Positions 38,578 through 57,501 of a stretch of DNA of 64,000 bases are shown in pieces (positions within the stretch are counted from its first letter, which is position 1; every line of letters starts with the position of its first letter). The DNA comes from Pseudomonadota bacterium (GTDB taxonomy: Bacteria; Pseudomonadota; Alphaproteobacteria; Caulobacterales; Hyphomonadaceae), in NCBI GenBank assembly GCA_039033355.1, contig JBCCCT010000001.1:5893-69892 (forward strand), written 5' to 3'. The translations under genes were made by a program, and so were the position numbers. The notes below the pieces were generated by a model. The model had not been told where the DNA came from, ran no database searches, and worked only from the letters and a program-made list of their open reading frames with translations.

Positions 38578-39522
38578 TCAGGTCGCGGTTTCTGCGGGGG
38601 TGCTATATTTCTCAATCAATCGGTCAACAAGGGCGCGGGTTGCATGTGTTCCGGCGATTTCGTTCATTCCGGTGCCTTCGAATTCAAGTCCGAGATAACC
38701 GCGGAAATCGGACTCGATCACCTGCTTCATCATGCCTTCGAAATCGAGCGTGTTTTCATTGCCATCAGCGTCGAAGCCAAACGCTTTGACGCTGACCCCC
38801 TTGGCATAGGGCATCAATTCCTGAACGCCTTTAACGCCATCATATTTACTGCCATCCGGCAGTTTGAAATTCCCGAAATCGGGCAAGGTGCCGATATGTG
38901 GCGAGTTGGCCTTTTTCATCAGGTCCGCCAGCCAGCCACCATGTTGAGAGAAGCCGCCTTTGTTTTCGATGACCAGGTTCATGCCTTGTTGAGAGGCATA
39001 GGCTTCCAGTTGATGCAAGCCATCAAGCACCAGCTTGTGCTGTTCTTCAAATGGCAGGTCATTGTCAGTTTCAGCGATCACGCGGATGGCATGACAGCCA
39101 AGGAAGGCTGCGACATCGACCCATTTCCGATGGTTGATTGCGGTCTGCATACGGGCATCTGCGTCAGGGTCACCGATCGCGCCTTCGCCATCGACCATGA
39201 TCAAGACGCTATCGACGCCAGCGCCGTCAGCCCGTTTCTTGAGTTCGGTCCAATACGCCATGTCTTCGCCGAGCCCGCGATAAAAGGTGCTGACATATTC
39301 TACTGCACCTATATCGAATGTCTCGCGGACGAATTCCGGGAAGTGTAGCGGATTGAGCGGCACCTGAAAGAAGTCCGAGAACCGCTCGGTCAACGCAAAA
39401 TGCAGGCGCTTGGCGTGACGGCGAAAGATCGAACCGCCACTGCCAATCTTCCGATGCAAGGCATATTGCGCGAAAGAGTATTTGAACCGGGGCTCTGAGC
39501 TATTGGCTAAAGGCGAACTCAT
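38578..39522 (-). CDS. Xylose-isomerase-like TIM-barrel protein (sugar phosphate isomerase/epimerase family), cytoplasmic paralog
   Basis: It is clearly paralogous to 41425..42387 (shared blocks DIGAVEYV, GDPD, IENxGG, GTLPDFGNF, ELMPYAxGVSxKxFGFD). The preferred start, ATG at 39522, lies 13 nt after the wzx stop. No signal peptide. Confidence 0.75.
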   Translation of the reverse strand: MSSPLANSSEPRFKYSFAQYALHRKIGSGGSIFRRHAKRLHFALTERFSDFFQVPLNPLHFPEFVRETFDIGAVEYVSTFYRGLGEDMAYWTELKKRADGAGVDSVLIMVDGEGAIGDPDADARMQTAINHRKWVDVAAFLGCHAIRVIAETDNDLPFEEQHKLVLDGLHQLEAYASQQGMNLVIENKGGFSQHGGWLADLMKKANSPHIGTLPDFGNFKLPDGSKYDGVKGVQELMPYAKGVSVKAFGFDADGNENTLDFEGMMKQVIESDFRGYLGLEFEGTGMNEIAGTHATRALVDRLIEKYSTPAETAT

Positions 39523-39535
39523 CTTGGCAGAATCC

Positions 39536-41053
39536 TCAATCTTGGCTTTCGACGGACGGGGCGGGTGGGGTCGCAACAGGTTTGCCGCGTTTCAGAATTT
39601 TCCGCAGCAGCCCCGCAATCGCAGACTCAATGCCTTCTGGCTCACCGCTCAGCTTCCACAATGTGGCAACCGTCGCGCAATAAGCGATCATGCCGGCGCT
39701 GCCCAGCATGGCTGAGGTCCAGACGATCGAGAGCGGCGAATCATAGCTGAGGAAGGGACGCAGCAGATAGACAATCGCGGCCAGAACCGCCATGCCGGCA
39801 AAGGGGCGCAACATGGAAAAGGCTTGATCTCTCAGCCGCAAGCCGATCAGGTGGCGGACAATGAAAGCACCGGCAATGGTCCACGCCGTGACCCCGATCA
39901 GCAGTCCGACCAGAAATCCATTCACGCCAGCCAGGTGCCAGCCAATGAACAGACACGGCACTTTCACGACCAGACCGCTCGCGGCTTGCAGTGCATTGTA
40001 TCGGGCTTTGTCCAGTGCCAGGACGACACTCGGCACGGGCTGGGATGGCAGCTGGATGATGGCGGACAGGGACAGAACCGCCAGGAACAAAGAGGCTCCT
40101 GACCAGCTGTCATTAAAGGCGAGGGTGACAATTGGCTCCGCCAATGACGCCACCAAAGCCAGCACCGGGGCGACGGCGACAACGACCGCCGTCGATGCGG
40201 TCAAGTATCCAGGCCGGATCGCTTCCGGGGTCCGTAATTCAGCAAAGGCGGCAATAAAGGGTCGGATGATCGGAATAACCAGAACCTGAAACGGCGCGCC
40301 CGCCAGCGTTTGGGATATCGAGTATTGCCCAACCATATCTTTGCGGGCGTTCAGACCCAGAACAAAGATGTCGGCCTGCCAATTTGCTGCGACAAAGAAT
40401 TGCGACACCGTGGTCCAGCTAATCATGTCGGAAAAGACCGGCCAGTCTTTTAGCGACAAGCGGGGGCGATAAGGTGCAAAGATGTAAGATCCGATAATCA
40501 TCGAAACCGGGGTCAGAACGGTCATGATGGCCAGGGACCAATAGCTTTTTGTCCACAGCGCCAGCGGGATAGCGATACAGGCCGTGACGATCTTGGCCAG
40601 CGTGTCGATGATGGCTTCCGGGAAGTAGTTCAGGCGGCGCGCATACATGACCAGTTTCGGATTGACCAGACCACGCAAGGCCGGCGACATGGCCAGGAAG
40701 ACCATCAGCAGGCCGAGTCGCGGCTCGTCATAAATATGCATCGCGACAGGAGCCATCGCAATCACGAGACCGGTGACAAGCAGTGCCCGAATAGCGGATA
40801 TCGTAAACGCCGTATCGAGCATGGAATCCGTGACGGTCGGCGTTCGGATCAAGGCTTGAATGACCGGGATCTCGGTGACGGATTCGGTGAACTGGATAAA
40901 GATCATCGCGATCGCGACCAGGGCGAAATCCTCTGGCACCAGAATCCAGGCCAGAATCAGGATCAGAGCCAGGTCAACGAATTTGACAAATATCCGCGCA
41001 CCAAGAAGCGCAGCGCTGGCAAATGCCGTCCGCTTTGTCACATCTTGAGCCAT
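39536..41053 (-). CDS. Wzx-type oligosaccharide flippase (MOP superfamily polysaccharide biosynthesis protein)
   Basis: 505 aa with about 12-14 TM helices and a typical Wzx-like N-terminus (AFASAALLGARIFVKFVDLALILILAWIL). Confidence 0.8.
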   Translation of the reverse strand: MAQDVTKRTAFASAALLGARIFVKFVDLALILILAWILVPEDFALVAIAMIFIQFTESVTEIPVIQALIRTPTVTDSMLDTAFTISAIRALLVTGLVIAMAPVAMHIYDEPRLGLLMVFLAMSPALRGLVNPKLVMYARRLNYFPEAIIDTLAKIVTACIAIPLALWTKSYWSLAIMTVLTPVSMIIGSYIFAPYRPRLSLKDWPVFSDMISWTTVSQFFVAANWQADIFVLGLNARKDMVGQYSISQTLAGAPFQVLVIPIIRPFIAAFAELRTPEAIRPGYLTASTAVVVAVAPVLALVASLAEPIVTLAFNDSWSGASLFLAVLSLSAIIQLPSQPVPSVVLALDKARYNALQAASGLVVKVPCLFIGWHLAGVNGFLVGLLIGVTAWTIAGAFIVRHLIGLRLRDQAFSMLRPFAGMAVLAAIVYLLRPFLSYDSPLSIVWTSAMLGSAGMIAYCATVATLWKLSGEPEGIESAIAGLLRKILKRGKPVATPPAPSVESQD

Positions 41054-41424
41054 TCTACGTCATCCCCTCGCCAAACGCGTTGCGAGCTATACTGTCCCCA
41101 AAATGGCGTTGCGCCGACACCCGGTTTGAACCCGCGTGCGCGCGCCACGACGCCAGACATTTCCCTAGCATCGAAGCTGCGGCGATCAACGGGGGAAACG
41201 CTGCCTGAGGCGTTACGTCTCTGTTTGTGTCTGTTTGGTACGCAGTTTCGGTCTTGCTGCCCGCGATCGAAGACATGCCTGCCGCGAATGTTGGGCATGG
41301 TGCAGGCAGGATCGACAAAAAGGCGGACATGTTTGGAAGGCTCCGAAACGCGATGCGTGGACAGGGATGCATGAAATGTGCGAGATTAACTGCAAGAGAC
41401 TTGCCAATTTGACGGGGACTAAAA

Positions 41425-42387
41425 GTGGTTAATTCAACGCGTCGACAAGCCCTGCTCTGGGGCGGAGCTATGATCGGAACTATGGCCGTGTCAGGCTGTG
41501 CGGATGCGCAAGCCCCGGACCCGGTTTCTGAGCCAAATGCAGACCCGGAATTATTCAAGATTTCGCTGGCGCAATGGTCACTTCATCGCGCGCTTTATGC
41601 CGACAGGAATGATCCAAATCATTTGCCGCCCCTGATGTTCCCGGTGAAAGCGCGGCGGGATTTCGATATCGGGGCCGTCGAATATGTGAACTCATTCTAT
41701 CGCGATACCGTGCGCAATGAATCCTTCCTCAACCAGCTCAAGAATGTCGCCGATAATGAAGGGGTGAAAAGCCAGCTCATCATGTGCGATGGCGAAGGCC
41801 GGCTTGGGGATCCTGATCCGCAGGCGCGCACTCAGTCGATCGAGAATCACTACAAGTGGGCCGACATGGCGGCGCATCTGGGCTGTAAGTCCATTCGCGT
41901 GAATGCGTTCAGCGCGGGCAGTTTCGAAGACCAGCAATTCTATGCCGCGGACGGCCTGGTGCGCCTGTCCGAATATACCCGACAGTATGATATTTCAGTG
42001 ATTGTCGAGAATCATGGCGGCTGGTCCAGCCACGGCGCCTGGCTGGCTGGTGTCATGAAGTTTGCCGATAGCAAATGGGTCGGCACCTTGCCGGATTTTG
42101 GCAATTTCACCTATGGTGACGGCGCAAAATATGATCCTTATCAGGGCGTTGAAGAGTTAATGCCGTATGCGCATGGCGTCAGCGCCAAGAGTTTCGGATT
42201 CGATCGCAATGGTGATGAAAGCCGTTTCGATTATGAGCGTATGCTCCGCATCGTTCTCGACGCCGGCTTCCGGGGCTTTATTGGCGTTGAATATGAAGGC
42301 AATCAGGTCAGCGAACCCGAAGGCATTCGAAAGACCAAGGCACTGCTTGAGCGGTTGCGCACACAGCTCGCGCCCGAATATGCCTAG
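41425..42387 (+). CDS. Xylose-isomerase-like TIM-barrel protein, Tat-exported lipoprotein paralog
   Basis: GTG start. It carries the twin-arginine motif STRRQALLWG followed by the lipobox AVSGC. The remainder is paralogous to 38578..39522. Confidence 0.75.
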   Translation: MVNSTRRQALLWGGAMIGTMAVSGCADAQAPDPVSEPNADPELFKISLAQWSLHRALYADRNDPNHLPPLMFPVKARRDFDIGAVEYVNSFYRDTVRNESFLNQLKNVADNEGVKSQLIMCDGEGRLGDPDPQARTQSIENHYKWADMAAHLGCKSIRVNAFSAGSFEDQQFYAADGLVRLSEYTRQYDISVIVENHGGWSSHGAWLAGVMKFADSKWVGTLPDFGNFTYGDGAKYDPYQGVEELMPYAHGVSAKSFGFDRNGDESRFDYERMLRIVLDAGFRGFIGVEYEGNQVSEPEGIRKTKALLERLRTQLAPEYA

Positions 42388-46367: not shown

Positions 46368-47627
46368 TCAGGCCGTCGCCAGCTCGTCAATTCTGTTTTC
46401 GAACTTTTCAATGTGTGCGTCGATCCAGGTTTCGGGCGTGTGGCACAGCTCTTTCGCATGTTCAAACCCGGCAACGCTCATTCGCTTGATCAGCGCATGA
46501 TCCGCTGCAAACGCCTTGATTGTAGAGGGTAATTCTTTGCTATTGCGAATGGCGAACCGCCTGCCAAATCCAAGCCGTTCAACATCATCCGCGAGCGCCG
46601 CCCGGCGCGTCACGATCACTGGCAATCCGCTAATCGCTGCTTCCAGAATGACCAGGCCAAACGGTTCATTCACACGACTGGGAACGATAAGCGCCCGGGA
46701 CTGACGCGCAATTTCGGCAATCTCGCCCGGTTGTTTCCAGCCGACAAATGTCGCGTTCGGATAGAATGCCGCCCCGTTTTGCGACAGCTCACCTTCACCA
46801 ATGACGGTTAGCGGTTCGCCAATTTCGGTTGTCGCCGCCAAAGCGAGATCAGCGCCCTTATCGCCCGAGACACGCCCAACAAAAAGGAACCCGGAATTGT
46901 TCTCCGCCTTGATCCGGTCGTGCGTCCATGGCCGGACCGGATTGGGTATTGTCTCGCCATCCGAGCGCGGAAATCCAGCCTGTTCAAAGCGCTCCTTCAT
47001 GCGATCATGAATATAGGTGAACATAAAGCGCCGGCTGCCAAACTCGGAAATGGTATTGAGATGTCTTTGCCGGGCGAACCGCCAGATCTTGTGCAAGTGA
47101 CTGCGCCGATCGCATGCGCTCATCAAACAGGCCGTCGAGCCTGGCTTAAGATCGCAGGGCAACGTTTTCCTGAAATTCATGAAAGCGCCATTTGGGCAGA
47201 CATTGAAAAAATCATGACAGGTGACGATCGTGCGCTCTGCGACGGCCTTCAAGGCGATAAAGATGGAGGGTGACAGCATTTGCGACCAATTGTGCAAATG
47301 ATAGACGGTGCCCGGCGTATCATGCGCCGCAATCCAGTCTCGCACCAGATCCAGTGCGGCGCTGTTGTGATACCCTTGTCGAAAGGCCTCTATCGCTGAG
47401 ATCTCAAGCAGTGGCTTGGAATTGAGTCCGACGACGTCGACATTCAGATTGTCCAGTTCCGGTGTGCTGGCTTCCCCCGTGAGAAAGGTCACCGGCAATC
47501 CGCGCGAGACATATTGCCGTATGCATTCAGCCGTTAGAATCCCGGCACCCCCTTCGGGTTTGGAAAAATCGTGGATGACCACGACACGTTCTATGCCACT
47601 CACGTGTGGGTCCCTTCTATGGTTCAA
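46368..47627 (-). CDS. GT4-family glycosyltransferase
   Basis: C-terminal GT-B motif PSRVNEPFGLVILEAAISGLPVIV (E-x7-E). 419 aa. Confidence 0.8.
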   Translation of the reverse strand: MNHRRDPHVSGIERVVVIHDFSKPEGGAGILTAECIRQYVSRGLPVTFLTGEASTPELDNLNVDVVGLNSKPLLEISAIEAFRQGYHNSAALDLVRDWIAAHDTPGTVYHLHNWSQMLSPSIFIALKAVAERTIVTCHDFFNVCPNGAFMNFRKTLPCDLKPGSTACLMSACDRRSHLHKIWRFARQRHLNTISEFGSRRFMFTYIHDRMKERFEQAGFPRSDGETIPNPVRPWTHDRIKAENNSGFLFVGRVSGDKGADLALAATTEIGEPLTVIGEGELSQNGAAFYPNATFVGWKQPGEIAEIARQSRALIVPSRVNEPFGLVILEAAISGLPVIVTRRAALADDVERLGFGRRFAIRNSKELPSTIKAFAADHALIKRMSVAGFEHAKELCHTPETWIDAHIEKFENRIDELATA

Positions 47628-47660: not shown

Positions 47661-49292
47661 TCAAAATGAATGCCGTGGCTGTTTTTGTGGCTTCTCACTC
47701 GATCGCAGCCGGAATCCGCCGACGCGTTTACGTACATCCATGACCACCATTCCGGCGCGCGAATCCATATGATGGCTGCCGATAATACCGGATTGAAAAT
47801 CGGGTTCGATCTTGCGGGTCAAGGATTCTTCATAAGCATCCATCGAGATTGTCTCAATCTTCATTGCGTTCACGCCATAACCGTACAGTCCGCGTGAATT
47901 ATCTTGAGACATCCGATAATAGGCACCATCGCTGTGGATCACGCGTCCACCATTTCGCGCGGTTCGCGTATCAAACACGACCGGGTTCAGCGGGTGCGGT
48001 GTCAGCTCCGACAATCCGGGGCCATCCACTTTATAGACGTGCAATTCCGAACTCATCTCACCAAACGGATCATTCGACATATTGGTGAAAAGCCACCAAT
48101 CATCACGGATTTTGACCAGGCTGCTATCGGCGGCGATGACATCATCAATGACGGTTTGCACCCGCTCCCACTGGTTGGGAAAGGAGGTACACTTCCAGGT
48201 TTCGATCCGTTTCTGACTGCAGACTTCCGGCATCATCAACAGCGTGCCATCATTGTCCTCGAACAAGAACGGGAATGACATGTGATAATCGGTCTGAACG
48301 GCAGGCTCGATATCGATCAGCGCGCCGTCGACGAGACGTCCGACGGCGATGTAACCAGTATCCTTCGCATAGTTGTAAACTTCGAAGAAACAAAACATCT
48401 CGCCGTCACGTTCCCATAAGAAGGGATCGGCGAAATATCCATTCGCAGTGGAATGATGCTCCTGCATGGTCGCCGGATCGACCGTGAGCATATCCGTTTT
48501 CGAGGTCTTGAGAAAAAACTCACCTGGTCGGAAATGAAGCTTGCTGGCCTGGACTTCGATGAACCTGGTTGCCGTCCGGCGTAAAAACCCGAACGCGTAG
48601 CGGGTCATGGTCCAAAGGCCTGGCCGTTTGAGCGGCATCAAATCCGCAGCGCCTTCTTCATGCGCTACGCCGGTCAGCTTGATGCGATTGAGCTCACGCA
48701 CAATCAGCGTGACGGCTTTTTCGCACATGAAGGAATGTTGCAGGCTAGCAAACAGTTTGAGATTCAAAACCGCGCCCGCAACCCGCCTGGGTAACTTTCC
48801 GCTGGCTGCCGCTCGGCAGAGTTTCACTTCATAGAATGGCGCATTATTGGCGATGGCGCGAATACTGCTGGTTCCGGTGGCAGCTGTGAGGAAATTGAGA
48901 AACCAGACACCATAGGACGACGCGGTTGGATCAAGACCTTGTCCCCGCAAGCTTGTCAGGTCGATGATCACGTCTGCACCGAGTTCGCTGATGCCGAGTT
49001 TGTCTTCGCATCTTAGAGTCGGGAGCGTTGGGTGGATCTCGTCAAAGCGCGGCGTCGCTGTCTTTATTGGTTTGGCGACGACTTTCGACTCTACTTGCCA
49101 CCACAGGCGATGCGACAGAGCCATTTTGGCGGGCCCCGGTTTTTCGTCCCGTTCAATCAGAGCGATCAAATTCAGATGATCGGTCGTGCAAATGCGTTCC
49201 GCGAGGCGCGCCATCCAGGGCTGAACTGGTTCCTCCGAATAGCACACAAGCGCAATGCTCAGACTTGCAATTTGCACGGTCCTGTTCCCCAA
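47661..49292 (-). CDS. Two-domain hypothetical protein (N-terminal alpha/beta domain plus C-terminal beta-rich, propeller-like domain)
   Basis: 543 aa with no TM helix. The C-terminal half (YFADPFLWERDGEMFCFFEVY...SFPFLFEDNDGTLLMMPE...DDWWLFTN) has the repeated aromatic/acidic beta-strand pattern seen in five-bladed propeller glycosidase/transferase-like folds. The family assignment is not secure. Confidence 0.5.
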   Translation of the reverse strand: MGNRTVQIASLSIALVCYSEEPVQPWMARLAERICTTDHLNLIALIERDEKPGPAKMALSHRLWWQVESKVVAKPIKTATPRFDEIHPTLPTLRCEDKLGISELGADVIIDLTSLRGQGLDPTASSYGVWFLNFLTAATGTSSIRAIANNAPFYEVKLCRAAASGKLPRRVAGAVLNLKLFASLQHSFMCEKAVTLIVRELNRIKLTGVAHEEGAADLMPLKRPGLWTMTRYAFGFLRRTATRFIEVQASKLHFRPGEFFLKTSKTDMLTVDPATMQEHHSTANGYFADPFLWERDGEMFCFFEVYNYAKDTGYIAVGRLVDGALIDIEPAVQTDYHMSFPFLFEDNDGTLLMMPEVCSQKRIETWKCTSFPNQWERVQTVIDDVIAADSSLVKIRDDWWLFTNMSNDPFGEMSSELHVYKVDGPGLSELTPHPLNPVVFDTRTARNGGRVIHSDGAYYRMSQDNSRGLYGYGVNAMKIETISMDAYEESLTRKIEPDFQSGIIGSHHMDSRAGMVVMDVRKRVGGFRLRSSEKPQKQPRHSF

Positions 49293-49644
49293 AAACTCTA
49301 CAAACCCAACTGGGTTTCGCGTCCCATAATCGTCGCAACGTTAGCAACCTGATCGCAAGATGCAATTTCTATTCTCAAAATCACGCGACGTTGCGCCGAT
49401 TGCGCGATTGTTGAGCCGGTCTTTCCCTTATCAGGTGCAACTTGCTCTAATACCGATAAAAACTTGGGAAGAGCTTGGCGAATTCTCTTGCTGAGGCCTG
49501 CTCAAAATCATACAAGAAAGTGGGTGATATTCGGCATCTGGATTGCACTGGGACGCGAGCATGGATCAAACATGCTCGGGACTGTGCCAATATCAACCTG
49601 GGTGAGTCGAGCGGGGTGGGTTTCCCTTCGGCGGTAGAGTTGAA

Positions 49645-50340
49645 ATGAAGGGGAAACAAATGGTTTTCAAATATGACCCTGGTGACGCGCGGGAAGAGTT
49701 CAAGACGCGCGGCTTCGTGCATCTGAAAGATCTGATGACCGATGACTTTCTGAGTCATCTCGGCGCGTTCTATCAAGAGAGTCAGGCGTCCGCTCAGAAC
49801 GAGCAGGAAGACTGGAAAATTTACGGCAAGAAGCGACAGTATCTTTTTGACTTCTCGTCGGATGAAGCTGCGATCGAGTTTCGTGATGGCATGGCGCGTC
49901 TGCTCGACTATGAACCGGACGCCTTGACGATTTCGGAACGACACCTGAAAGTCTATGATGAAGACGCGATGCCATGGCCGGCACCGCACAAGGACCGGGC
50001 CGCATCGGCGGTGTCGATTGGGTTACCCATCCATTTGCCCGAAGGCTCGACCGTTTGTGTCTTCCCGGAACTGGAATTTGGTCCCAATGAGGAAGAACGC
50101 GCGGTCTTTATGACCGACCGTGACCATCCCGACCTTGAGCATATCTATGCCAAGGAAAAAGCCGTGATGTTGCATGAGCGTGTCGGCGACCTGGTCGTGT
50201 TCCTCGGCTCTTCCATTTATCATGAGCGCGTGAAAGCTGGCGGCGCCGCCATTCTGTACGTCAAAGTGAATGACGATGGCCGCGACCCGTTGGGGGAGAA
50301 TATCTTCGGTAAAAAGCCAGATGTCGCGCCTGCCGAGTAG
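49645..50340 (+). CDS. Cupin / Fe(II)-2-oxoglutarate-oxygenase-like protein (tentative)
   Basis: A possible H-x-D...H facial triad (PHKDRA ... SSIYHERV). 231 aa, first gene of a six-gene operon. The assignment is tentative. Confidence 0.45.
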   Translation: MKGKQMVFKYDPGDAREEFKTRGFVHLKDLMTDDFLSHLGAFYQESQASAQNEQEDWKIYGKKRQYLFDFSSDEAAIEFRDGMARLLDYEPDALTISERHLKVYDEDAMPWPAPHKDRAASAVSIGLPIHLPEGSTVCVFPELEFGPNEEERAVFMTDRDHPDLEHIYAKEKAVMLHERVGDLVVFLGSSIYHERVKAGGAAILYVKVNDDGRDPLGENIFGKKPDVAPAE

Positions 50341-50373
50341 CGCAGTCTTGAAGTAGAGTAGGAAAACAAACCG

Positions 50374-51084
50374 ATGGCTGAGAAACTGAAATCAGCGGAA
50401 ATGACCCCGGGACCAGGCTTCATGATTCGAAGCGATTTTGAGCGTCCGGATCAGGCTCTGATTGATGGCTTCGCGGAGTTCGAAACAGCCGATGTTTCGG
50501 ATGCCATGAACCGGCTGTACGCGATGAGCGGCGAGATCAAGAACCTCTCAAATGACAAAGAATTATTGGGTGCGGCCTGCACGGTGAAACTCTATCCGGG
50601 CGACAATCTGATGATCCACAAGACCTTGGACATCGCCAAGCCGGGCGACGTCGTTGTGGTCGATTGCAGTGGGGCGATGACAAATGCGGTGTTCGGCGAT
50701 CTGGTTGCCAATAAGGCTACGCATCGCGGCATTGGCGGCTACATAATTGATGGCCTGATCCGCGATCTCGACGGCGTCAAAGAGACCGGATTGCCGGTCT
50801 ATGCGCGCGGTGTGACGCCATTTGGCCCCCTGCATCGCGGACCTGGCGAAGTTAATACACCGATCAGCTGCGGCGGCGTCGTGGTCAATCCGGGCGATAT
50901 TATTAAAGCGGACTCAACCGGAATTGCGGTTGTCCCGCGGGCCTATGCACAGGAAATCCTAGACCGCCTGCGCGAAAGCAAAGCCAAACAGGCAGCTTAT
51001 GTCGAAAGCGTCAAACGCGGCGATTTCTCCAATGCCTGGGTGGACGAACAATTAAGCGATACAGGTTGCTTTATCACGTCATAG
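50374..51084 (+). CDS. RraA-family protein (HMG/CHA aldolase / oxaloacetate decarboxylase-like)
   Basis: ADVSDAMNRL and GDLVANKATHRGIGGYIIDGLIRD are typical RraA-like blocks. 236 aa. Confidence 0.8.
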   Translation: MAEKLKSAEMTPGPGFMIRSDFERPDQALIDGFAEFETADVSDAMNRLYAMSGEIKNLSNDKELLGAACTVKLYPGDNLMIHKTLDIAKPGDVVVVDCSGAMTNAVFGDLVANKATHRGIGGYIIDGLIRDLDGVKETGLPVYARGVTPFGPLHRGPGEVNTPISCGGVVVNPGDIIKADSTGIAVVPRAYAQEILDRLRESKAKQAAYVESVKRGDFSNAWVDEQLSDTGCFITS

Positions 51085-51098
51085 GCACCTGACCCGCC

Positions 51099-52190
51099 TT
51101 GGAGGCGCGCATTCTGCCCCAACCGATCAACTCTCTCTGGTTACGCAACAAACGCCGCGTCCTCAGCTTTCAGGCCGGCATCGCTCGGCGGCGGTTGCGT
51201 CATGTTCGCAGCGCGTTTTATGACCGCCTGTGGCGCGACGCCGCGACCCAAGTCGATGCCACGGTTGCGTCGCGCCCGAACGGATTGCTGCAAATTTCGT
51301 CCGGATCGCGGGCGACCTTTGTCTCACAATCGGATTTAATGCTCGATAGCGACCTCATGCTGCGCTTCATGGCGAATAAGGCCCTGACTTATGAATTCAT
51401 GGCGAATAAGCGGATCCGATTGCCGAGACATGCCAAATTCGATCTTAACAGTTTAGACGTCGCGACCGATTTCCTGCGGGATCAGGATGGACCAATTGTC
51501 ATCAAACCGGCGGACGGAACCGGCGGGGGCCGCGGGGTGACGACCGGTATTACGACCGCAAACGCGCTCTTGTCCGCGGCGCGGCATGCGGCCGGGTTCA
51601 ACACGCGTCTTCTGGCCGAGGAACAGCTGACCGGCGCCTCTTACCGCTTGCTTTATATCGATGGTCAGTTCCTGGACGCGGTGCGCCGCGATTCCCCGAT
51701 CGTGATCGGCGATGGGCAAGCAACGGTTCGGGAATTGGTCAAGCGCGAGAATGTGGCGCGCCAGTCGACGGACCCGATTGCTGCGCTCAGCCCATTATTG
51801 ATCGATCAGGAGGCGCGAAACACGCTCAACGCGGCCGGCCATTCCCCCAATTATGTGCCATCCCAAGGGGAAACCGTACAGGTCAAGCTCGCCGTCAATG
51901 AGAATAGCGCAGCGCAGAACCATGTGGTTCGTGATCAGGTTCATCCTGAAATTATCGAGACCGGTGCCGATCTGGTCAGAGCCTTCGGGATCCGGTTTGC
52001 AGGTCTGGACGTGACCGCGGATGATATATCCGTATCGGTTTCGGATGAACGGGTGATCTTCAACGAGATCAACGTCAATCCAGGGATCCATCATCATTAT
52101 CTGGTCTCCGATTTGACCCAGCAAGCCGATGTGGCCCCGAAACTGCTGGACCATATGTTCCGGACCAAACAGGGGACGATTGAATTATGA
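51099..52190 (+). CDS. ATP-grasp ligase, cyanophycin-synthetase-like G-domain type (stand-alone)
   Basis: The blocks IVIKPADGTGGGRGVT, YRLLYIDGQFLDAV, GDGQATVRELV, FAGLDVTADDIS and FNEINVNPGIHHH run collinear with the CphA-type ATP-grasp domain. TTG start, 14 nt after the previous stop. Confidence 0.7.
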   Translation: MEARILPQPINSLWLRNKRRVLSFQAGIARRRLRHVRSAFYDRLWRDAATQVDATVASRPNGLLQISSGSRATFVSQSDLMLDSDLMLRFMANKALTYEFMANKRIRLPRHAKFDLNSLDVATDFLRDQDGPIVIKPADGTGGGRGVTTGITTANALLSAARHAAGFNTRLLAEEQLTGASYRLLYIDGQFLDAVRRDSPIVIGDGQATVRELVKRENVARQSTDPIAALSPLLIDQEARNTLNAAGHSPNYVPSQGETVQVKLAVNENSAAQNHVVRDQVHPEIIETGADLVRAFGIRFAGLDVTADDISVSVSDERVIFNEINVNPGIHHHYLVSDLTQQADVAPKLLDHMFRTKQGTIEL

Positions 52191-53389
52191 GTGCCTTAGA
52201 CACCTCCACGCCCGTGCTTCTTCTGGGCGGCCGAGAGAATGCGCTCGCAGTGGCCCGAAATCTCGGCCGGCTTGGTGTGACCATTTATTCGAGTGGCAAG
52301 TCGGGCAGCCGATCGATGGATTCGAAATATTGCACGCAGGCGTTCATCGTTCCGGACGAAACGGATGCCGCTGACCATTGGCGCGACCTGCTCCTGGCCC
52401 ATAAGTCCCCGCAACTGCAAGGCTGTATCATCTTTGCCTGTTGCGATGAGTCGCTGAATTTCCTGCAATCGAACCGCGATCAACTCGCCGCTCATTATAA
52501 GCTGGAAGAGTTTGTACCTGAACAGAGACGGACCATGCTCAACAAGCAGGCGACTCTGGATATCGCGGGTAAGATTGGGGTCCCGGCGCCCGCCTATTGG
52601 GAAATCAATTCGGACGAGGATGTCGAAAAAATCCGCGATGATGTCAGGCTACCTGTCATGGTCAAGCCGTTGGATTCCTTTGCTTTCGTGCACGAGTTTG
52701 GGGCCAAGCTTTTCATTGTCGATACTGACTTTGATGAGGTCGTCGAGAAAGTGAAGCTAGCCAGGTCACGTGGTCAGGACGTGATGGTCGTCGAAATGAT
52801 ACCAGGCCCGGATGATCTTCTAACCTCCTATTATACCTATCGGACCGCGGATGGCCGCCGCTTGTATGATTACACCAAGAGCGTCATTCGGCGTTGGCCG
52901 GTTAATCGTGGCGGCGCCTGTTTCCATCAGTCGGAATGGTTGCCGGAAACCGCAGAAATGGGACAGAAACTGTTTGACGGAGTCGACTGGAACGGCATTG
53001 GCAATGTCGAATTCAAGCGCGATACGCGCGACGGGCGGTTAAAAATTATCGAAGTAAATGCACGCTTCACCGCCGCGCATCGCCTGGTGACGGCGGCCGG
53101 TGCGCCGATTGACGAGATCATTTACCGGCACCTGTCAGACCAGGACATTCCGACTTTTGACTCCTATTCAAATACGTTGCGAATGATCTATCCGATCGGC
53201 GATTTCATGGCCTATCTGGAATTGCGACGGTCAAAACAACTGAGTTTTTTCGGTTGGTTGAAAACCGTCTTTGCTCAACCGGTTGTGGTTCCGGATTTCA
53301 GTTTCGGGGATCCTTATCCGGCTCTGGCGGAGTGGGGATTGATCGCGCGTCGTGGATTTGGGAAAGTCTTCGGCATCTTCCGTCGGTAA
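52187..53389 (+). CDS. ATP-grasp domain protein (carboxylate-amine ligase-like)
   Basis: A pre-ATP-grasp Rossmann-like N-terminus (PVLLLGGRENALAVARNLGRLGV), the central block PVMVKPLDS, and NVEFKRDTRDGRLKIIEVNARF. It overlaps the previous gene by 4 nt (ATGA). Confidence 0.7.
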   Translation: MSALDTSTPVLLLGGRENALAVARNLGRLGVTIYSSGKSGSRSMDSKYCTQAFIVPDETDAADHWRDLLLAHKSPQLQGCIIFACCDESLNFLQSNRDQLAAHYKLEEFVPEQRRTMLNKQATLDIAGKIGVPAPAYWEINSDEDVEKIRDDVRLPVMVKPLDSFAFVHEFGAKLFIVDTDFDEVVEKVKLARSRGQDVMVVEMIPGPDDLLTSYYTYRTADGRRLYDYTKSVIRRWPVNRGGACFHQSEWLPETAEMGQKLFDGVDWNGIGNVEFKRDTRDGRLKIIEVNARFTAAHRLVTAAGAPIDEIIYRHLSDQDIPTFDSYSNTLRMIYPIGDFMAYLELRRSKQLSFFGWLKTVFAQPVVVPDFSFGDPYPALAEWGLIARRGFGKVFGIFRR

Positions 53390-53394
53390 CGCTT

Positions 53395-54453
53395 ATGCGC
53401 ATTGAACCAGGTGATCTCACGACATTTTGCCGCCAGTTGGTGCGGGCGGCGGGGGTCGATCATGCCCAGGCAGAATCCCTGACCGACAATCTGGTCTGGT
53501 GTGATATGGCCGGGCGCCGCAATCACGGTGTTGAGAGATTGCCAATATTGCTCAAACATGTCGAAGCAAAAACGATCAAATGCCCCAGCACACCGCGACT
53601 GAAACCACTCGGAGATTCGCTCGCGCTTCTCGATGCCGATCAATCATTCGGGCATCATGCGGGCCGAATCGCCATCGATCAGGCATGCGATATCGCTGCC
53701 GCGAACGGAGTCGGGATCGTTGGTGTGACCAACAGCAATTTCTTCGGTGCCGGTGCTTATTACGCCAACCGCGCTGCGGAGCGCGGCATGATCAGCCTGG
53801 TCCTGAGCAATTCTTTCCCCAAGGTCGCGGCGCCTGGCGGTCTGCATGCCTTGCTGGGGACCAACCCGTTCACGTTCGGCGCCCCGCGCCGAGCCGGTCG
53901 CGCCTTATTGGTGGATATGTCGACCGCCTCCGTCGCTGGATCGACCGTGCGCGAAAAGGCTCAAAAAGGTGAGCGTTTCCCGGAAGGAGTGGCGATTGAT
54001 GAGTGGGGCAACCCCATCCATGATCCCAACCAGGTATTGAAGGGAACATTGCTGTCCGCCGCCGGTCCGAAAGGGTTTGGCATTGCTTTGCTTGTCGAGA
54101 TATTGAGCGCCGCCCTGACAGGCGCCGCAATGTCTCAACAGGTTGGATCCATGTATAAGAATTTTGATCGGCCGGGCGCCAATGGGCATTTCATGATGGC
54201 GCTTGACGTTTCGCGCTGGATGCCGGTTGAGGATTTCTTCGATCGCATGAACCTGCTGGTGCAATTTGCTGACGCATCTGCCGCGGATGGCGCGGTCCGA
54301 ATGCCGGGCGATGCCCGCTGGATCGCTTATCGAGACAGTTTGGAAAACGGCATCGCGCTGGAGCCGGCCACCATGGCAAACGTCGGCGATCTGGCGCACA
54401 AATATGGGCTTACGGCGCCGTGGGAGTCCGCCAACCGTCCGGTTCACAAATGA
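53395..54453 (+). CDS. Ldh_2-family (malate/L-lactate dehydrogenase type 2) NAD(P)H oxidoreductase
   Basis: The blocks GRRNHGVERLP, SFGHHAG, GVTNSNFFGAGAYY, NPFTFGAP and KGFGIALLVEILS are typical of Ldh_2. ATG at 53395 lies 5 nt after the previous stop; the track ORF from 53254 overlaps the previous gene. Confidence 0.8.
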   Translation: MRIEPGDLTTFCRQLVRAAGVDHAQAESLTDNLVWCDMAGRRNHGVERLPILLKHVEAKTIKCPSTPRLKPLGDSLALLDADQSFGHHAGRIAIDQACDIAAANGVGIVGVTNSNFFGAGAYYANRAAERGMISLVLSNSFPKVAAPGGLHALLGTNPFTFGAPRRAGRALLVDMSTASVAGSTVREKAQKGERFPEGVAIDEWGNPIHDPNQVLKGTLLSAAGPKGFGIALLVEILSAALTGAAMSQQVGSMYKNFDRPGANGHFMMALDVSRWMPVEDFFDRMNLLVQFADASAADGAVRMPGDARWIAYRDSLENGIALEPATMANVGDLAHKYGLTAPWESANRPVHK

Positions 54454-55457
54454 GCCAGACGCCAACCTCTCCGTCCCGGTTGGCGCATATCGATGCCGCC
54501 AAGGGCGTGAGCATCTTTCTGGTCGTCTATTGGCACGCCGTAGATGCAAGGCTGATCTTCAATGAAGCCTTGTGGATGCTGCGCATGCCGCTCTTCTTCT
54601 TCGTGTCGGGCCTGTTCGCCGCCAAGGCGCTGGACCTGGATTGGCGCGCATTTCTGACCCAAAAGGTCGGCAATATTCTCTACCTCTACGTGTTCTGGAC
54701 CTTCCTCGTTTTTGCCTCGACCATTCTCGTGGCGCAGGTCTTCGGACCTGATCCGATCAATTGGCAACAACCTTTCATGCTATTTGTCGAACCGCCACGA
54801 ACGCTTTGGTTCATGTACGCACTGGCTGTCTCCTTCGCTCTGGCAAAACTGCTAAAACCACTGCCGCCTCTCTTCGTGTTCGCAGCGCTGTTCGCGCTCT
54901 ACAGTTGGAGTATTTCGGGAGGGGACTGGCGTACCGTGCCCTTTTTCGAAAAGGTCATACGCTTGTTCCCGTTCTTCTACCTCGCTATGTGGATCAAGCA
55001 GCCTTTCCTGGAGTGTGTGGAGCGACACCATAAATTCGGATGGCTGGCCCTCATCCTGTTTACCGCCAGCGCCTTGGCCCTGTTTCTGAGCCCGGTCGCG
55101 AATTGGGGCATCCTCACTTTCGCCGTCGGCCTCACTGGCGTGTTCGGGGTGACAATGAGCTTTCGATCCGCGCCGAACAATCGATTCACGTCGCTGATGG
55201 CGAACATCGGCAACCGCTCCCTGCTGGTCTATGTCATGCACCGCATTCCACTATTCTACATGGAAAATGCGATGGAGGTGCTCGATGTGCCGGTGAATGC
55301 GACCACGATGTCCATCGCTGCGGTGATTGCCACCTGGCTCTGTCTGGTGATCGGCGAGCGACTGTTGCTGCCGCTCTTCTACTGGCTGTTTGATGCGCCC
55401 TGGTTGGGTCCAAAGGCGCGGCTCGGCGAACGCCTGTCCAATTATAGGACAGGCTAA
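54450..55457 (+). CDS. Acyltransferase family 3 membrane protein (second copy)
   Basis: HIDAAKGVSIFLVVYWH followed by about 10 TM helices. ATG at 54450 overlaps the Ldh_2 stop (ATGA). Confidence 0.75.
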   Translation: MSQTPTSPSRLAHIDAAKGVSIFLVVYWHAVDARLIFNEALWMLRMPLFFFVSGLFAAKALDLDWRAFLTQKVGNILYLYVFWTFLVFASTILVAQVFGPDPINWQQPFMLFVEPPRTLWFMYALAVSFALAKLLKPLPPLFVFAALFALYSWSISGGDWRTVPFFEKVIRLFPFFYLAMWIKQPFLECVERHHKFGWLALILFTASALALFLSPVANWGILTFAVGLTGVFGVTMSFRSAPNNRFTSLMANIGNRSLLVYVMHRIPLFYMENAMEVLDVPVNATTMSIAAVIATWLCLVIGERLLLPLFYWLFDAPWLGPKARLGERLSNYRTG

Positions 55458-55470
55458 ACGCTGAGTCCGC

Positions 55471-55790
55471 CTAGTCATCGATGGGGGGCAGCAAAGGCGG
55501 GATCTCATTTCCCTCCGTATCCATCACAACATAAACCAGAGGATAAACGACGCCCTTGCGCGCGACGGCTTTGCCGTCAACGTTTTTTTGGTGCGAATTT
55601 CAGTGTTGCCACCGCATTTCGTGATGAGTTCACAAAGCCGGGGTGGCCGCACTTAACGTCCAGATTGGTGACATTGCCTTTGGGCGTCACAAAAGCCCAC
55701 CTCCCACCGGCATGAAAACCGAAAGCCCGTTCATACGCCAGACTTTTCCTGTCCGGACAGGCCTTCGGTGTCCGTTTTCCGCTTCGATGA
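55471..55790 (-). pseudogene. TonB C-terminal-domain-like gene remnant, frameshifted at a homopolymer
   Basis: My own minus-strand translation gives ...AFVTPKGNVTNLDVKCGHPGFVNSSRNAVATLKFAPKK, then a stop. In the next frame it continues NVDGKAVARKGVVYPLVYVVMDTEGNEIPPLLPPIDD*. The frames join at the T7 run 55583-55589. There is no start codon, TM or Pro-rich region upstream. Confidence 0.4.
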
Positions 55791-55800: not shown

Positions 55801-56532
55801 CTATTCCTCGGTCTCGGTTTCGTCGTCTTTCAAGATGATTTTCTTTATCTCAATGTCGATGTCTTCGTCGATGCCGGCTTCGCCCAGCGCTTCTTCGATC
55901 AGGACATCCAGATCCGCCTCGGTGAGTTCATCGCCGGAATCGATCCGCTTGACGATAACTTTCTTGTGCGACTCGACTTTGACTTCGCCGTGAATTTCGC
56001 CGCCGGCTTCATCGTTAAAGGTGAGCACTTTAACGACTTTCTTGGTCACGATTTCACCGTCCTCGCCTGTCTCGTCATCTGTCTGAATGATCTCGATCCG
56101 ATTGCCGGCTGCTTCCAACTCTTCCCGGCTGACGCCGCCAGAGCCATCCGTGTCGAGCTTGGCGATAATGTCCGCATCATATCCGGGCGCGATTTCGCCC
56201 TCGGTGATGAGGCCATCATTATTCTTGTCGAGTGCGTCGAATGGCGTTGAATCGGCTGCCGATGGCAGAGCGGTGACGGAAAAGACGCCGAGCGCGGCGC
56301 CAGCGGCGGTCGCGATCGATTTGAAGCGGTGACGTGCGAGGGTCATGGTGATCTCCTGGACCTTGTTCGGTTGTTCTTCCAGTCGAGCTTCCTCGATATA
56401 GGTGGAGATGAACCGTCGAAGCGCTTGCGACGCGGTTTCGTCGCGTTGCCTGGTCGCCGCCATGAAGTCTTGCTTCTGCTGATACGGCAACCGGATGTCC
56501 AAGCTTTCGCTCTTCTTTTCTCGACGTTTCAT
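55801..56532 (-). CDS. EF-hand calcium-binding protein, secreted or membrane-anchored (start ambiguous)
   Basis: Two canonical EF loops, DKNNDGLITEGE and DTDGSGGVSREE, and an acidic C-terminus. The internal ATG at 56346 has AGGAG 6 nt upstream and yields a classic signal peptide (MTLARHRFKSIATAAGAALGVFSVTALPSAA). The long form adds a 62-aa RHH-like N-terminus. Confidence 0.7.
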   Translation of the reverse strand: MKRREKKSESLDIRLPYQQKQDFMAATRQRDETASQALRRFISTYIEEARLEEQPNKVQEITMTLARHRFKSIATAAGAALGVFSVTALPSAADSTPFDALDKNNDGLITEGEIAPGYDADIIAKLDTDGSGGVSREELEAAGNRIEIIQTDDETGEDGEIVTKKVVKVLTFNDEAGGEIHGEVKVESHKKVIVKRIDSGDELTEADLDVLIEEALGEAGIDEDIDIEIKKIILKDDETETEE

Positions 56533-56649: not shown

Positions 56650-57501
56650 TCAAATCAGGCCCAGAACCGGGGCCGCTGCGATCAGCCCAATGCCCAGTAT
56701 CAATCGGTAAATCACGAAGGGCAGGAAGGTCATGCGCTTCAATAGCGTCATCAAGGCGTGGATGGAGGCGATCCCTGAAAGGAAGGCGATCACCGCGACG
56801 ATCATACCGTCCTGCAGCGTGACCAGACCGCCGGTCGAATCGGCGTCCAGCAGGCCCAGAGCCCCGTACAGACCTGCCGCGGCCAGGATCGGTGCGCCGA
56901 TCAGCATCGAAAAGCGGGCGGCCTCGGTGCGTTCATAGCCCAGCGCGCGCGCGGCTGTCATGGTGATGCCGGAACGGCTCGTTCCGGGGATCAGGGCGGC
57001 GATGGCCTGGGTCGCGCCAATCAGGGTGGCGTGGCCCAGCGTCATGTCCGCTTCGGTGCGGTCTTTGCCGCCCGCGACATCGGCCCACCAGAGTAACAGG
57101 CCAAAGCCAATCGTCGCGCCAGCCACGGTCCACACGCTGCGCAAATGCGCTTGCACGGCTTCCGGCACGAACATCTCGTGCGCAATGGCCGCGATCAGTG
57201 CGATCGGGGTCGCAACGATGATGCACAAGGCCAGGTTTGCGCCCCGTGACAGTGGCGCCTTGCGAAAACCTGCGCCGAGGAGCTCAAATCCGCCGGCGAC
57301 TGCCGCGACCACATCCTTGCGAAAGTAGATCAACATGGCCGCCAGCGTGCCGAGATTGGAGACCGCATTGATCAAAAGCTCGTCCCGGCCTTCCAGCGTG
57401 AAATAGTTGGCCGCCAGGAGCACATGCCCGGACGAGGAGATGGGCAGCCACTCGGTCAGGCCCTGAACGATTGCGATGATGGCAAGCTGTAGAAACGACA
57501 T
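56650..57501 (-). CDS. uppP: Undecaprenyl-diphosphate phosphatase (BacA/UppP)
   Basis: GLTEWLPISSSGH and PGTSRSG motifs. 283 aa with 8 TM helices. Confidence 0.9.
   Translation of the reverse strand: MSFLQLAIIAIVQGLTEWLPISSSGHVLLAANYFTLEGRDELLINAVSNLGTLAAMLIYFRKDVVAAVAGGFELLGAGFRKAPLSRGANLALCIIVATPIALIAAIAHEMFVPEAVQAHLRSVWTVAGATIGFGLLLWWADVAGGKDRTEADMTLGHATLIGATQAIAALIPGTSRSGITMTAARALGYERTEAARFSMLIGAPILAAAGLYGALGLLDADSTGGLVTLQDGMIVAVIAFLSGIASIHALMTLLKRMTFLPFVIYRLILGIGLIAAAPVLGLI

Follow-up and report, generated by a model that had tools for sequence, protein, structure and literature searches.

The locus described here raises the question of what a compact set of genes, coding for an oxygenase, an aldolase-like enzyme, two ATP-grasp ligases, a reductase and a membrane acyltransferase, produces at the edge of a bacterial exopolysaccharide locus. 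The genes lie on the + strand of a 64-kb stretch of DNA from an alphaproteobacterium of the Hyphomonadaceae (contig JBCCCT010000001.1), and this whole stretch is referred to below as the window. They are labelled g1 to g6, and two divergent partners on the − strand are labelled u1 and u2. An earlier note on this DNA had read the six genes as an operon which makes a small hydroxy- or amino-acid-derived unit and ligates it onto the neighbouring polysaccharide or onto a free metabolite. The comparison of loci presented here suggests a more specific answer: four of the six genes form a conserved cassette, which would act as a cytoplasmic module that makes a reduced unit derived from a 2-oxo acid, joined to a glycan by two ATP-dependent bonds, a reading to which we give about even chances. 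The families assigned to the six genes in the earlier note were borne out by Pfam and NCBIfam, and in the case of g1 by AlphaFold2 and Foldseek:

g1: 49660-50340, + strand, 226 amino acids (aa), predicted Fe(II)/2-oxoglutarate-dependent oxygenase, accessory, assigned by fold alone
g2: 50374-51084, + strand, 236 aa, RraA-like homologue of class II pyruvate aldolases/oxaloacetate decarboxylases, core
g3: 51099-52190, + strand, 363 aa, TTG start, stand-alone ATP-grasp ligase of the cyanophycin-synthetase G-domain type, core
g4: 52187-53389, + strand, 400 aa, COG3919-type ATP-grasp ligase with a 4-nucleotide (nt) overlap with the g3 stop, core
g5: 53395-54453, + strand, 352 aa, Ldh_2-family NAD(P)H-dependent oxidoreductase, core, replaceable by other reductase families
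g6: 54450-55457, + strand, 335 aa, Acyl_transf_3 integral-membrane acyltransferase with a 4-nt overlap with the g5 stop, lineage-specific accessory

Conservation of the core across phyla

Relatives of g4 were found in at least 574 species by a scan of one genome per species. The gene content given below is that of the 80 best species-level loci, several of whose contigs are incomplete, so that the figures are lower bounds. Of these 80, 41 have the RraA-like gene, g3 and g4 colinear in this order, and in 30 the series is extended by Ldh_2 into a colinear quartet, the very combination for which the earlier note had proposed a neighbourhood search. Counted singly, g3 is present in 62 loci, the RraA-like gene in 59 and Ldh_2 in 44. 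The carriers belong to at least six phyla and include Alpha- and Gammaproteobacteria, Acidobacteriota (Vicinamibacterales), Planctomycetota and Actinomycetota, together with Gemmatimonadota-like and other metagenome-assembled genomes (MAGs). The order RraA-like, CphA-like ATP-grasp, g4, Ldh_2 is found within the polysaccharide loci of Henriciella, Rhodovulum and Qipengyuania. Since the succession of an RraA-like gene and two ATP-grasp genes recurs colinearly across several phyla, the gene order goes beyond chance.

Judged by this distribution, the conserved unit is the RraA-like protein with the two ATP-grasp ligases and the reductase, and not the block of six genes which had previously been taken as the unit: a homologue of the oxygenase occurs in 22 of the 80 loci and an acyltransferase of the g6 type in 4. 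These two genes, together with a family 4 glycosyltransferase (GT4) and a protein with a GINT1_N domain, are by the same comparison lineage-specific add-ons. Base composition bears on how the core is spread. In a gammaproteobacterial MAG (L021, positions 8172-12228), the four cassette genes have a G+C content at third codon positions of 0.52-0.57, against 0.24-0.40 in the flanks, and this contrast therefore indicates that the cassette moves horizontally and was acquired there recently, as a block.

The relatives of g4 in the plasmid collection are distant (22-27% identity) and belong to Bacillota; they would be informative by analogy and not as members of the cassette. On Bacillaceae plasmids, the distant g4-like ATP-grasp gene forms an operon with genes for a PIG-L deacetylase and a GT4. 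In L087 (positions 7043-11240, Priestia megaterium plasmid NC_017139) and L088 (positions 5011-10543), the series PIG-L, GT4, ATP-grasp and CotS-like kinase lies among spore-coat genes, and the g4-like protein is annotated as ‘carbamoyl-phosphate synthase’. This plasmid operon looks like an uncharacterised modification of a spore-surface glycan that follows the gene logic of mycothiol and bacillithiol. By the same analogy, the PIG-L - GT4 - ATP-grasp operons hint at the freed amine of a hexosamine as one kind of acceptor.

The two ATP-grasp ligases

The closest curated relatives of g3 are the NCBIfam models of cyanophycin synthetase (TIGR02068/NF010623), which it matches with E = 1e-44 at model positions 181-479 only; its 152 bits compare with cut-offs of 850 and 877, and it lacks the full N + G + M architecture (~870 aa) of that enzyme. 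The relatives of g3 in the PDB are 7ta5, 7lgm and 8fxh. It aligns over ~290 residues with the G domain of CphA and with the GshAB ligase domain, and that of Ngg is also homologous. The TTG start of g3 is supported by its homologues, which cover 96-100% of its length.

The homologues of g4 carry the automatic JGI/NCBI names ‘D-aspartate ligase’ or ‘carboxylate-amine ligase’, and g4 does not lie in a peptidoglycan context; the libraries searched returned no curated model of D-aspartate ligase (Aslfm) for it. Its matches in Pfam and NCBIfam are weak ATP-grasp matches, far below cut-off, and a sequence search of solved structures returned no relative. The profile of the g4 family reaches only generic ATP-binding segments of VanA and of carbamoyl-phosphate synthase (CPSase), the match with VanA extending over ~90 residues. 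Among 22 homologues, K160, E289-x-N291 and R293 are invariant, and these comprise the ATP-grasp lysine and the Mg-binding E-x-N motif. Such residues are typical of active ATP-grasp enzymes, and with the Arg-Asp pair of g2 likewise kept, the enzymes look active.

At E <= 0.01, the Pfam matches of g3 and g4 are confined to GARS_A, Dala_Dala_lig_C, CPSase_L_D2, ATPgrasp_Ter and ATP-grasp. Neither protein matches the TupA-like family (PF14305) at this threshold in the Pfam scan, and the parallel that the earlier note had drawn with the amidoligases of Campylobacter, which are TupA-like, does not extend to the protein family. The same note had named ordinary Ddl or RimK enzymes as the identity that would speak against its reading, and the scores lie far from these: g3 reaches 27 bits against 246 for Ddl and 18 against 143 for RimK, while the best Ddl score of g4 is 19 against 243. 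No cut-off of the curated NCBIfam models for Ddl, RimK, CphA and GshAB was reached by either ligase. The 4-nt overlap between the two genes (ATGA/GTGA) is kept in 22 of 37 loci, including those of Actinomycetota and Planctomycetota, which points to coupled expression and perhaps to a complex.

The aldolase-like enzyme and the reductase

The g2 protein is a member of the RraA-like family (PF03737, E = 2.8e-46, 157.9 bits against a cut-off of 24.5) and passes the model of the uncharacterised NCBIfam subfamily NF004850 (244.1 bits against 231). It falls below the equivalogs of the HMG/CHA aldolases (146.5 against 304.5 bits for LigK/PcmE, TIGR02798, and 160 against 179 for NF006731), below the model of the RraA regulator (NF006875, 95.7 against 136 bits) and likewise below the equivalog PRK09262. 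Its nearest solved relative is the HMG/CHA aldolase 3noj, and the ‘irD’ of g2 aligns with the ‘vrD’ of 3noj, which holds the catalytic Arg-Asp pair (R123-D124).

The reductase g5 matches Ldh_2 (PF02615) over residues 6-328 (E = 1.9e-92, 310.4 bits against a cut-off of 38.8). It remains below the equivalogs of sulfolactate (205 against 500 bits), ureidoglycolate (189 against 356), malate/lactate (150 against 336) and 2,3-diketogulonate (120 against 316) dehydrogenases. The best of its solved relatives is 1vbi (E = 5e-57), and DpkA (1wtj) is found with E = 2e-34. Clustering of all locus genes revealed what takes its place: where Ldh_2 is absent, a reductase of the NAD_binding_2/DUF1932 type adjoins the cassette in 9 loci, and a D-2-hydroxyacid dehydrogenase of the VanH/GhrB type lies directly 3' of g4 in L043 and L054. 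Three unrelated families of NAD(P)H reductases thus accompany the cassette, and two of them take over where Ldh_2 is missing. For this reason a reduction step appears integral to the cassette, and the group reduced would be a carbonyl, most simply that of a 2-oxo acid; this is the strongest purely genomic statement on the chemistry.

Association with polysaccharide loci

The region at 22.7-55.5 kb of the window is an exopolysaccharide locus of the Wzx/Wzy type, which codes for Wzy_C, Bac_transf, several GT4, a family 2 glycosyltransferase (GT2), a Wzc-like kinase and a BBP2 porin, and also for a Wzx flippase, a second Acyl_transf_3 protein and an epimerase. The proposed link to a polysaccharide locus is thus upheld in the window, and it extends to glycan loci elsewhere. 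In Henriciella, Rhodovulum and Qipengyuania, the cassette lies among Wzz, Bac_transf, GT2, GT4 and Wzx genes. In a distant MAG (L044, 41% identity), it is embedded, on one strand, in the series Wza - Wzc - polysaccharide deacetylase - [cassette] - GT4 - beta-helix - sulfatase - Wzx, and in L040, L033 and L034 a Wzx-like flippase is found directly 3' of Ldh_2. The actinomycete loci L078 and L081 combine the cassette with GT2, GT4, a Wzm/Wzt ABC exporter, an AsnB-like amidotransferase and beta-helix genes, and the cassette therefore occurs in glycan loci of both the Wzx/Wzy and the ABC type.

In a deliberately insensitive phmmer screen, polysaccharide genes lie within 10 kb in at least 46 of 83 loci, and loci scored as empty by this screen did carry polysaccharide genes on inspection. 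A first census of Pfam counts among the distant loci gave a heterogeneous picture and, for a time, the impression that there was no link with glycans; this impression was reversed by locus-by-locus checks. A GT4 is operon-linked in 13 loci and belongs to either of two different clades, the second of which occurs in other phyla. Polysaccharide N-deacetylases lie beside the cassette, or beside g4 alone, in about 10 loci.

Partner and accessory genes

Two more partner genes, on the other strand, fall outside the coordinates of the earlier note:

u1: 47661-49292, − strand, 543 aa, formyltransferase-like N-domain followed by a GINT1_N five-bladed beta-propeller, divergent from g1
u2: 46368-47627, − strand, 419 aa, GT4 glycosyltransferase, 3' of u1

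The match of u1 to GINT1_N (PF24793) has E = 6e-32, and its AlphaFold2 model has a mean predicted confidence (pLDDT) of 90.3. With Foldseek, the N-domain (~residues 10-250) leads to Met-tRNA formyltransferases and the C-domain to propellers of the glycoside hydrolase (GH) families GH43, GH159 and GH130, and the model thereby gives a fold for the Pfam domain. The N-domain has no invariant His, which makes formyl transfer doubtful, and u1 is probably not a canonical formyltransferase. The suggestion that u1 might be the sugar N-deacetylase of the alphaproteobacterial loci was rejected, its fold being formyltransferase-like with a GH43/GH130-like propeller. A homologue of u1 occurs in 17 of the 80 loci, and in 19 loci by gene clustering, a count that also takes in L002, L006 and the window; it is operon-linked to the cassette in 10 loci and lies directly 3' of Ldh_2 in L002 and L006. 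A literature search for GINT1 in bacteria gave plant papers only.

The partner of u1, u2, matches Glycos_transf_1 and Glyco_trans_1_4 in Pfam (E about 1e-14). Its orthologues follow u1 in L002, L006 and L010-L014, and both genes directly follow the cassette on the same strand in Henriciella, Qipengyuania and other Alphaproteobacteria. By this arrangement, u2 is a dedicated glycosyltransferase partner of the cassette in the Alphaproteobacteria.

The accessory oxygenase g1 has no sequence match in Pfam, NCBIfam or the PDB. The top Foldseek matches of its AlphaFold2 model (pLDDT 90.8) are SnoN, GriE, EctD, HalB and proline hydroxylases, with E ~1e-7; to the first four the probability is 1.00 and the TM-scores are 0.5-0.63. 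The iron triad H110-x-D112...H188 is invariant among 32 homologues. The predicted structure, a double-stranded beta-helix with an H-x-D...H triad, confirms g1 as an Fe(II)/2-oxoglutarate oxygenase of the PhyH/EctD/GriE-like kind. This type is operon-linked 5' of the cassette in 12 loci, and so is an unrelated TauD-type oxygenase in 3; by their positions, oxygenases of two unrelated families are interchangeable beside the cassette.

The acyltransferase g6 matches PF01757 with E = 6.9e-31 (107.9 bits against a cut-off of 31) and has at least 5 strongly hydrophobic segments, as expected of a polytopic membrane protein. Its linkage to the cassette is confined to the window and L007-L010. Hydrophobicity prediction finds no membrane segments in g1-g5, u1 or u2.

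A proposed pathway and its alternatives

In the evenly weighted reading given at the outset, the unit is made in the cytoplasm, since the four core enzymes are all soluble, and is joined to a glycan there. We infer all of the substrates, in which direction the aldolase works, how the steps follow one another and that the polysaccharide is the acceptor. The role of g2 would be to supply a 2-oxo acid, most economically a 4-hydroxy-2-oxo dicarboxylate formed by aldol addition to pyruvate, and the two carboxylates of such a product would explain the two ligases. The carbonyl of the g2 product would be reduced by g5, and in lineages that carry g1 either the unit or its amino-acid partner would be hydroxylated. 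The two ligases, g3 and g4, would each activate a carboxylate as an acyl-phosphate, and the resulting two amide (or ester) bonds would link the acid with an amino acid, with a sugar of the repeat unit while this is still nucleotide- or lipid-linked, or with both. The acceptor sugar would be installed by the GT4 u2 together with the GINT1_N protein u1, and the polymer would be O-acylated by g6 after export.

Several observations weigh against this scheme. None of the five soluble enzymes (g1-g5) passes a curated equivalog model. About a third of the loci have no polysaccharide gene within 10 kb in the insensitive screen, and in loci of this kind the acceptor could differ or be encoded elsewhere. 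Among the open reading frames (ORFs) of the window locus scanned with Pfam, there is no sugar aminotransferase or N-deacetylase as a source of the amine, nor a UDP-sugar dehydrogenase as a source of uronate, and by Foldseek the fold of u1 is not that of a deacetylase. Some loci, such as L050-L053, retain g3, g4 and Ldh_2 but have no RraA-like gene, and the aldolase step is therefore not always needed.

A wider form of the proposal, which we advance tentatively and consider unlikely in its full extent, would make the core an unrecognised, horizontally mobile pathway of hundreds of species and at least six phyla. The unit would then be non-proteinogenic, either a branched hydroxy-dicarboxylic acid from a biosynthetic aldol reaction of the HMG type or an opine-like N-(carboxyalkyl) acid. 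Two separate acyl-phosphate ligations would attach it to exopolysaccharides, O-antigens and other glycans, where it would form a pseudo-peptide side chain. Hydroxylated derivatives of methyl-glutamate or pyroglutamate and carboxyethyl-amino acids have long been reported as unusual substituents on bacterial polysaccharides, and the mobile pathway, if true, could supply the missing genetics for such acyl and amino-acid substituents.

The alternatives differ in how much of the proposed chemistry they keep. One that we consider improbable retains the decoration of a glycan and turns the reductase into an imine reductase, which would yield an opine-like N-(1-carboxyalkyl) group or a proline-/pipecolate-like imino acid for subsequent ligation. 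Either a 2-oxo acid (pyruvate from g2) would be reductively coupled to an amine, or the substrate reduced would be a cyclic ketimine that arises once an aldol addition to an amino-aldehyde has taken place. The Ldh_2 family includes DpkA, which is a delta1-piperideine/pyrroline-2-carboxylate reductase and an N-methyl-amino-acid dehydrogenase, and DpkA is among the solved relatives of g5; yet g5 is nearer to the type-2 malate/lactate dehydrogenase 1vbi, by E = 5e-57 against 2e-34. The fold of the NAD_binding_2/F420_oxidored replacement is also that of imine reductases and of pyrroline-5-carboxylate reductase, whereas the D-2-hydroxyacid dehydrogenase that replaces Ldh_2 in L043 and L054 belongs to a family known for the reduction of 2-oxo acids and not of imines. 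Free amino acids are hydroxylated by the structural neighbours of g1 (GriE, EctD, HalB and proline hydroxylases), and amino acids are also acted on by CphA, GshAB and Ngg, which are related to g3, and by D-Asp ligase, which is related to g4. A second family of ketimine reductases is that of OCD and mu-crystallin. An enzyme of the OCD/mu-crystallin family is employed by the peptidylamido-glycan locus of Clostridium difficile (PMC5207246), which likewise suits an imine. A further possibility, which we rate as rather doubtful, dispenses with the polymer: the core would make a free small product, either a pseudo-dipeptide or a glycoside of the bacillithiol/mycothiol logic, and its position in the locus would reflect co-regulation or a role of this product as glycosyl acceptor. 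The solubility of all the core enzymes would suit this, as would the third or so of loci in which no polysaccharide genes are recognised within 10 kb, and the g3 relatives GshAB and Ngg do make free peptides. Bacillithiol and mycothiol are made by the same gene logic of deacetylase, GT4 and ligase that is met, with a PIG-L deacetylase, in the Bacillaceae plasmid operons and their distant g4 homologues; the GT4 partners of the cassette match BshA and MshA weakly, but at scores far below cut-off. Against a free product stand the interleaving of the cassette, on one strand, with export and polymerisation genes in L044, L078, L081 and the alphaproteobacterial loci, the Wzx-like flippase that directly follows it in three loci, and the lack, among the linked genes of the loci, of a consistent efflux or amidotransferase partner.

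The two ligases might instead assemble amino acids into a short polymer or oligomer, which could itself sit on a glycan, with g3 forming the backbone and g4 the branches. The homology of g3 to the G domain with which CphA1 and CphA2 extend the backbone fits this division of labour, and so does the naming of the g4 group as D-aspartate ligase in the source databases, D-aspartate ligase being an enzyme that uses the beta-carboxyl of aspartate to acylate a side-chain amine; the tight coupling of g3 and g4 would also suit a machine of two activities. However, neither the N-terminal primer-binding domain of CphA nor its Mur-ligase-like M domain is present in g3, which scores 152 against 850 bits, and no role is left for the conserved aldolase-like and reductase genes, which makes such a chain very improbable. 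We give least credence of all, as a highly improbable account, to a cluster of ordinary catabolism or primary metabolism that is no more than a neighbour of the polysaccharide locus, be it for aromatic or hydroxy-acid degradation by an HMG/CHA-type aldolase and a malate/lactate-type dehydrogenase or for housekeeping of the Ddl/RimK kind. Catabolic clusters often contain RraA-like aldolases and Ldh_2 dehydrogenases, and g2 has partial matches to the LigK/PcmE models, but the equivalogs all failed (LigK at 146 against 304 bits, Ddl at 27 against 246, RimK at 18 against 143), two ATP-consuming ligases have no place in such a cluster, and the synteny with GT4, Wzx, Wzc and Wzt genes persists over several phyla. 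Nor is there a linked transporter or regulator of the kind typical of catabolic operons.

Operon layout and flanking signals

The ORF list places the six genes on the + strand at 49645/49660-50340, 50374-51084, 51099-52190, 52187-53389, 53395-54453 and 54450-55457, with spacings, as read from the junction sequences, of 33, 14, -4 (ATGA), 5 and -4 (ATGA) nt; both the strand and the spacings agree exactly with those first described. The start codon of g3 is TTG, and that of g5 is an ATG inside the longer ORF 53254-54453. The beginning of g1, which had been set at 49645, was revised. The ATG at 49645 is not kept in the nearest relatives, being ATA in L007 and missing in L009, the homologues of g1 are 220-226 aa long, and the ATG at 49660 is preceded by a conserved Shine-Dalgarno sequence, AAGGGGAA; for these reasons 49660 is taken as the start. 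The divergent untranslated region, previously given as 350 nt, is consequently 367 nt long. Two flanking features complete the layout:

Divergent intergenic region: 49293-49659, 367 nt between u1 (− strand) and g1 (+ strand), presumed promoter and 5' leader
Terminator-like hairpin GACGGCTTTGCCGTC with T run: 55564-55585 (hairpin and T7 at 55564-55578), + strand, from a consensus scan and sequence reading

In the three closest genomes, the DNA identity of the intergenic region is 75-84%, against 74-89% for the flanking coding DNA. RNAalifold predicts two leader hairpins, one at 49558-49576 that has 3 compensatory pairs and an invariant one at 49606-49632, immediately 5' of the Shine-Dalgarno sequence. 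A sigma-70 consensus scan gave no match within 49293-49659, and an Rfam search of the leader gave none at E <= 1. A riboswitch or other known RNA was rejected on the grounds of this Rfam result and of the restriction of the motif to the three closest genomes: it is found in L007-L009 and is absent from the farther carriers L010 and L002. The region may thus be a lineage-specific regulatory leader. At the other end, the hairpin lies 107 nt 3' of the g6 stop codon and is the probable end of the operon; terminator-like sites are no more numerous in the region than expected from shuffling, and only the position of this one is suggestive.

Neighbouring genes

Other genes of the window locus were noted in passing. 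A GMC oxidoreductase (36752-38503, −) and xylose-isomerase-like TIM barrels (38578-39576, −; 41425-42387, +) flank the Wzx flippase within 36752-42387, and a GMC oxidoreductase is also found near the cassette in Rhodovulum (L004/L005) and in L019; their families suggest sugar oxidation and isomerisation, with formation of a keto-sugar, in this type of locus. The gene at 35180-36661 (+) codes for a protein of 493 aa with at least 10 hydrophobic segments and no Pfam match, whose homologues were found by phmmer in six related polysaccharide loci (L002, L013, L015, L025, L032, L036). Rhodovulum L004 has a 492-aa protein without Pfam match at the corresponding position, the likeness being one of size and position only. 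The product of 35180-36661 is a candidate for an unrecognised Wzy-type polymerase or ligase.

Immediately 3' of the operon, and convergent with it, lies a gene for a very acidic EF-hand protein of 243 aa (55801-56532, −), which has weak matches to the lanmodulin and XopAW models and is followed by UppP/BacA at 56650-57501. The presence of a calcium- or lanthanide-binding protein beside the locus of an anionic polymer may not be coincidental. In Sphingomonadales (L006, positions 5395-7868, and L011, L012, L014, L016 and L041), a conserved group of genes 5' of the cassette codes for Poly_export, a response regulator and Hydrolase_2, a SleB-like cell-wall hydrolase. A FemAB-like Acetyltransf_6 gene is found 5' of the cassette in L006, L011, L012 and L016, and occurs also in L019, L025, L032 and L036. 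The Hydrolase_2 and FemAB-like families are otherwise tied to the peptide chemistry of peptidoglycan. The G+C content of the window is 0.52-0.57 at 22000-56000, against 0.58-0.61 in the housekeeping flanks; a lower G+C content is typical of exchangeable surface-polysaccharide loci.

Significance

Non-sugar substituents on surface polysaccharides determine charge, recognition by phages and antibodies, biofilm properties and metal binding, and to our knowledge the enzymes for most of them have not been identified. The TupA-like family is the sole ATP-grasp family that we know to have been tied to the decoration of glycans so far. The cassette is compact, portable and present in distant phyla, and both of its ligases lie outside that family. 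If the proposed decoration of glycans is true, the cassette would represent a new enzymatic route for glycan tailoring and a genomic marker predicting an unusual substituent in hundreds of uncultured organisms, and it would give a biosynthetic role to the uncharacterised RraA-like subfamily NF004850 and to an uncharacterised subfamily of Ldh_2. The replacement of the reductase serves as a natural experiment, which fixes one step of the pathway from genomics alone.

The gene combination had been regarded as undescribed in the earlier note, and as far as could be checked this holds: neither ligase reaches the cut-off of a curated model, and a literature search found no paper that brings RraA or HMG aldolase together with ATP-grasp, be it in connection with polysaccharides or in general. 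The search for D-aspartate ligase with exopolysaccharide gave only reviews on peptidoglycan and D-amino acids.

Comparison with known systems

Each of the core enzymes has a counterpart in a known system. The likeness of g2 to the HMG/CHA aldolase-oxaloacetate decarboxylases (3noj of Pseudomonas putida, LigK) lies in the fold and the Arg-Asp pair, yet g2 belongs to NF004850 and is found in a biosynthetic context, not in aromatic-ring catabolism. In CphA, GshAB and Ngg, the ligase activates the alpha-carboxylate of a peptide or amino acid, to which the amine of an amino acid is then joined. With CphA1/CphA2, GshAB and Ngg, g3 shares homology over the whole ligase domain; unlike CphA, it is a stand-alone domain of 363 aa, with neither a cyanophycinase nor a storage-polymer context. 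The pair VanH-VanA also sets a 2-oxo-acid reductase beside an ATP-grasp ligase, the reductase of L043 and L054 is itself of the VanH/GhrB type, and VanA is the best solved match of the g4 family profile. However, that match covers ~90 residues, the Van/Ddl models are far below cut-off, and the context is one of polysaccharide and not of peptidoglycan precursors.

Another parallel in gene content is the type B flagellin locus of C. difficile (GT3, CDR20291_0244-0247), in which a glycosyltransferase, a FemAB-like protein, an ATP-grasp enzyme, an OCD-like reductase and an aminotransferase give a peptide-capped Fuc3N (PMC5207246, PMC5207245). This ‘sulfonated peptidylamido-glycan’ locus resembles the cassette in its dedicated glycosyltransferase, its ATP-grasp carboxylate-amine ligase and its NAD(P) enzyme. 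Of the gene set, the window has the GT4, two ATP-grasp genes and the reductase, and the FemAB-like gene occurs only in 8 related alphaproteobacterial loci. The cassette differs in having two ATP-grasp ligases and not one, Ldh_2 in place of the OCD-like enzyme and an additional RraA-like protein, and the proteins are not orthologous. The target in C. difficile is the O-glycan of flagellin, and the amine there comes from the aminotransferase FdtB, which is absent from the window.

A further known system is that of the TupA-like amidoligases. The C-terminal domain of Cj1438 from Campylobacter jejuni HS19.11 (Cj1438C) is an ATP-grasp enzyme that amidates the C6 carboxylate of capsular glucuronate (PMC11800379), and the decoration of surface polymers with amino acids has been ascribed to the family, with its TupA/WemR-type enzymes (PMC12632600). 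As with Cj1438C, TupA and WemR, the ATP-grasp genes of the cassette lie inside loci of the capsule or O-antigen type. The TupA-like enzymes form an ATP-dependent amide bond to a sugar of the polymer, a reaction which in the cassette is suggested by genomic context only. Campylobacter relies on a separate serinol-phosphate pathway, whereas the cassette carries an aldolase-like enzyme and a reductase of its own. The decoration of glycans by ATP-grasp enzymes is thus already known, and what is new here is the use of two ligases from other ATP-grasp clades, tightly coupled to each other and accompanied by these two dedicated enzymes.

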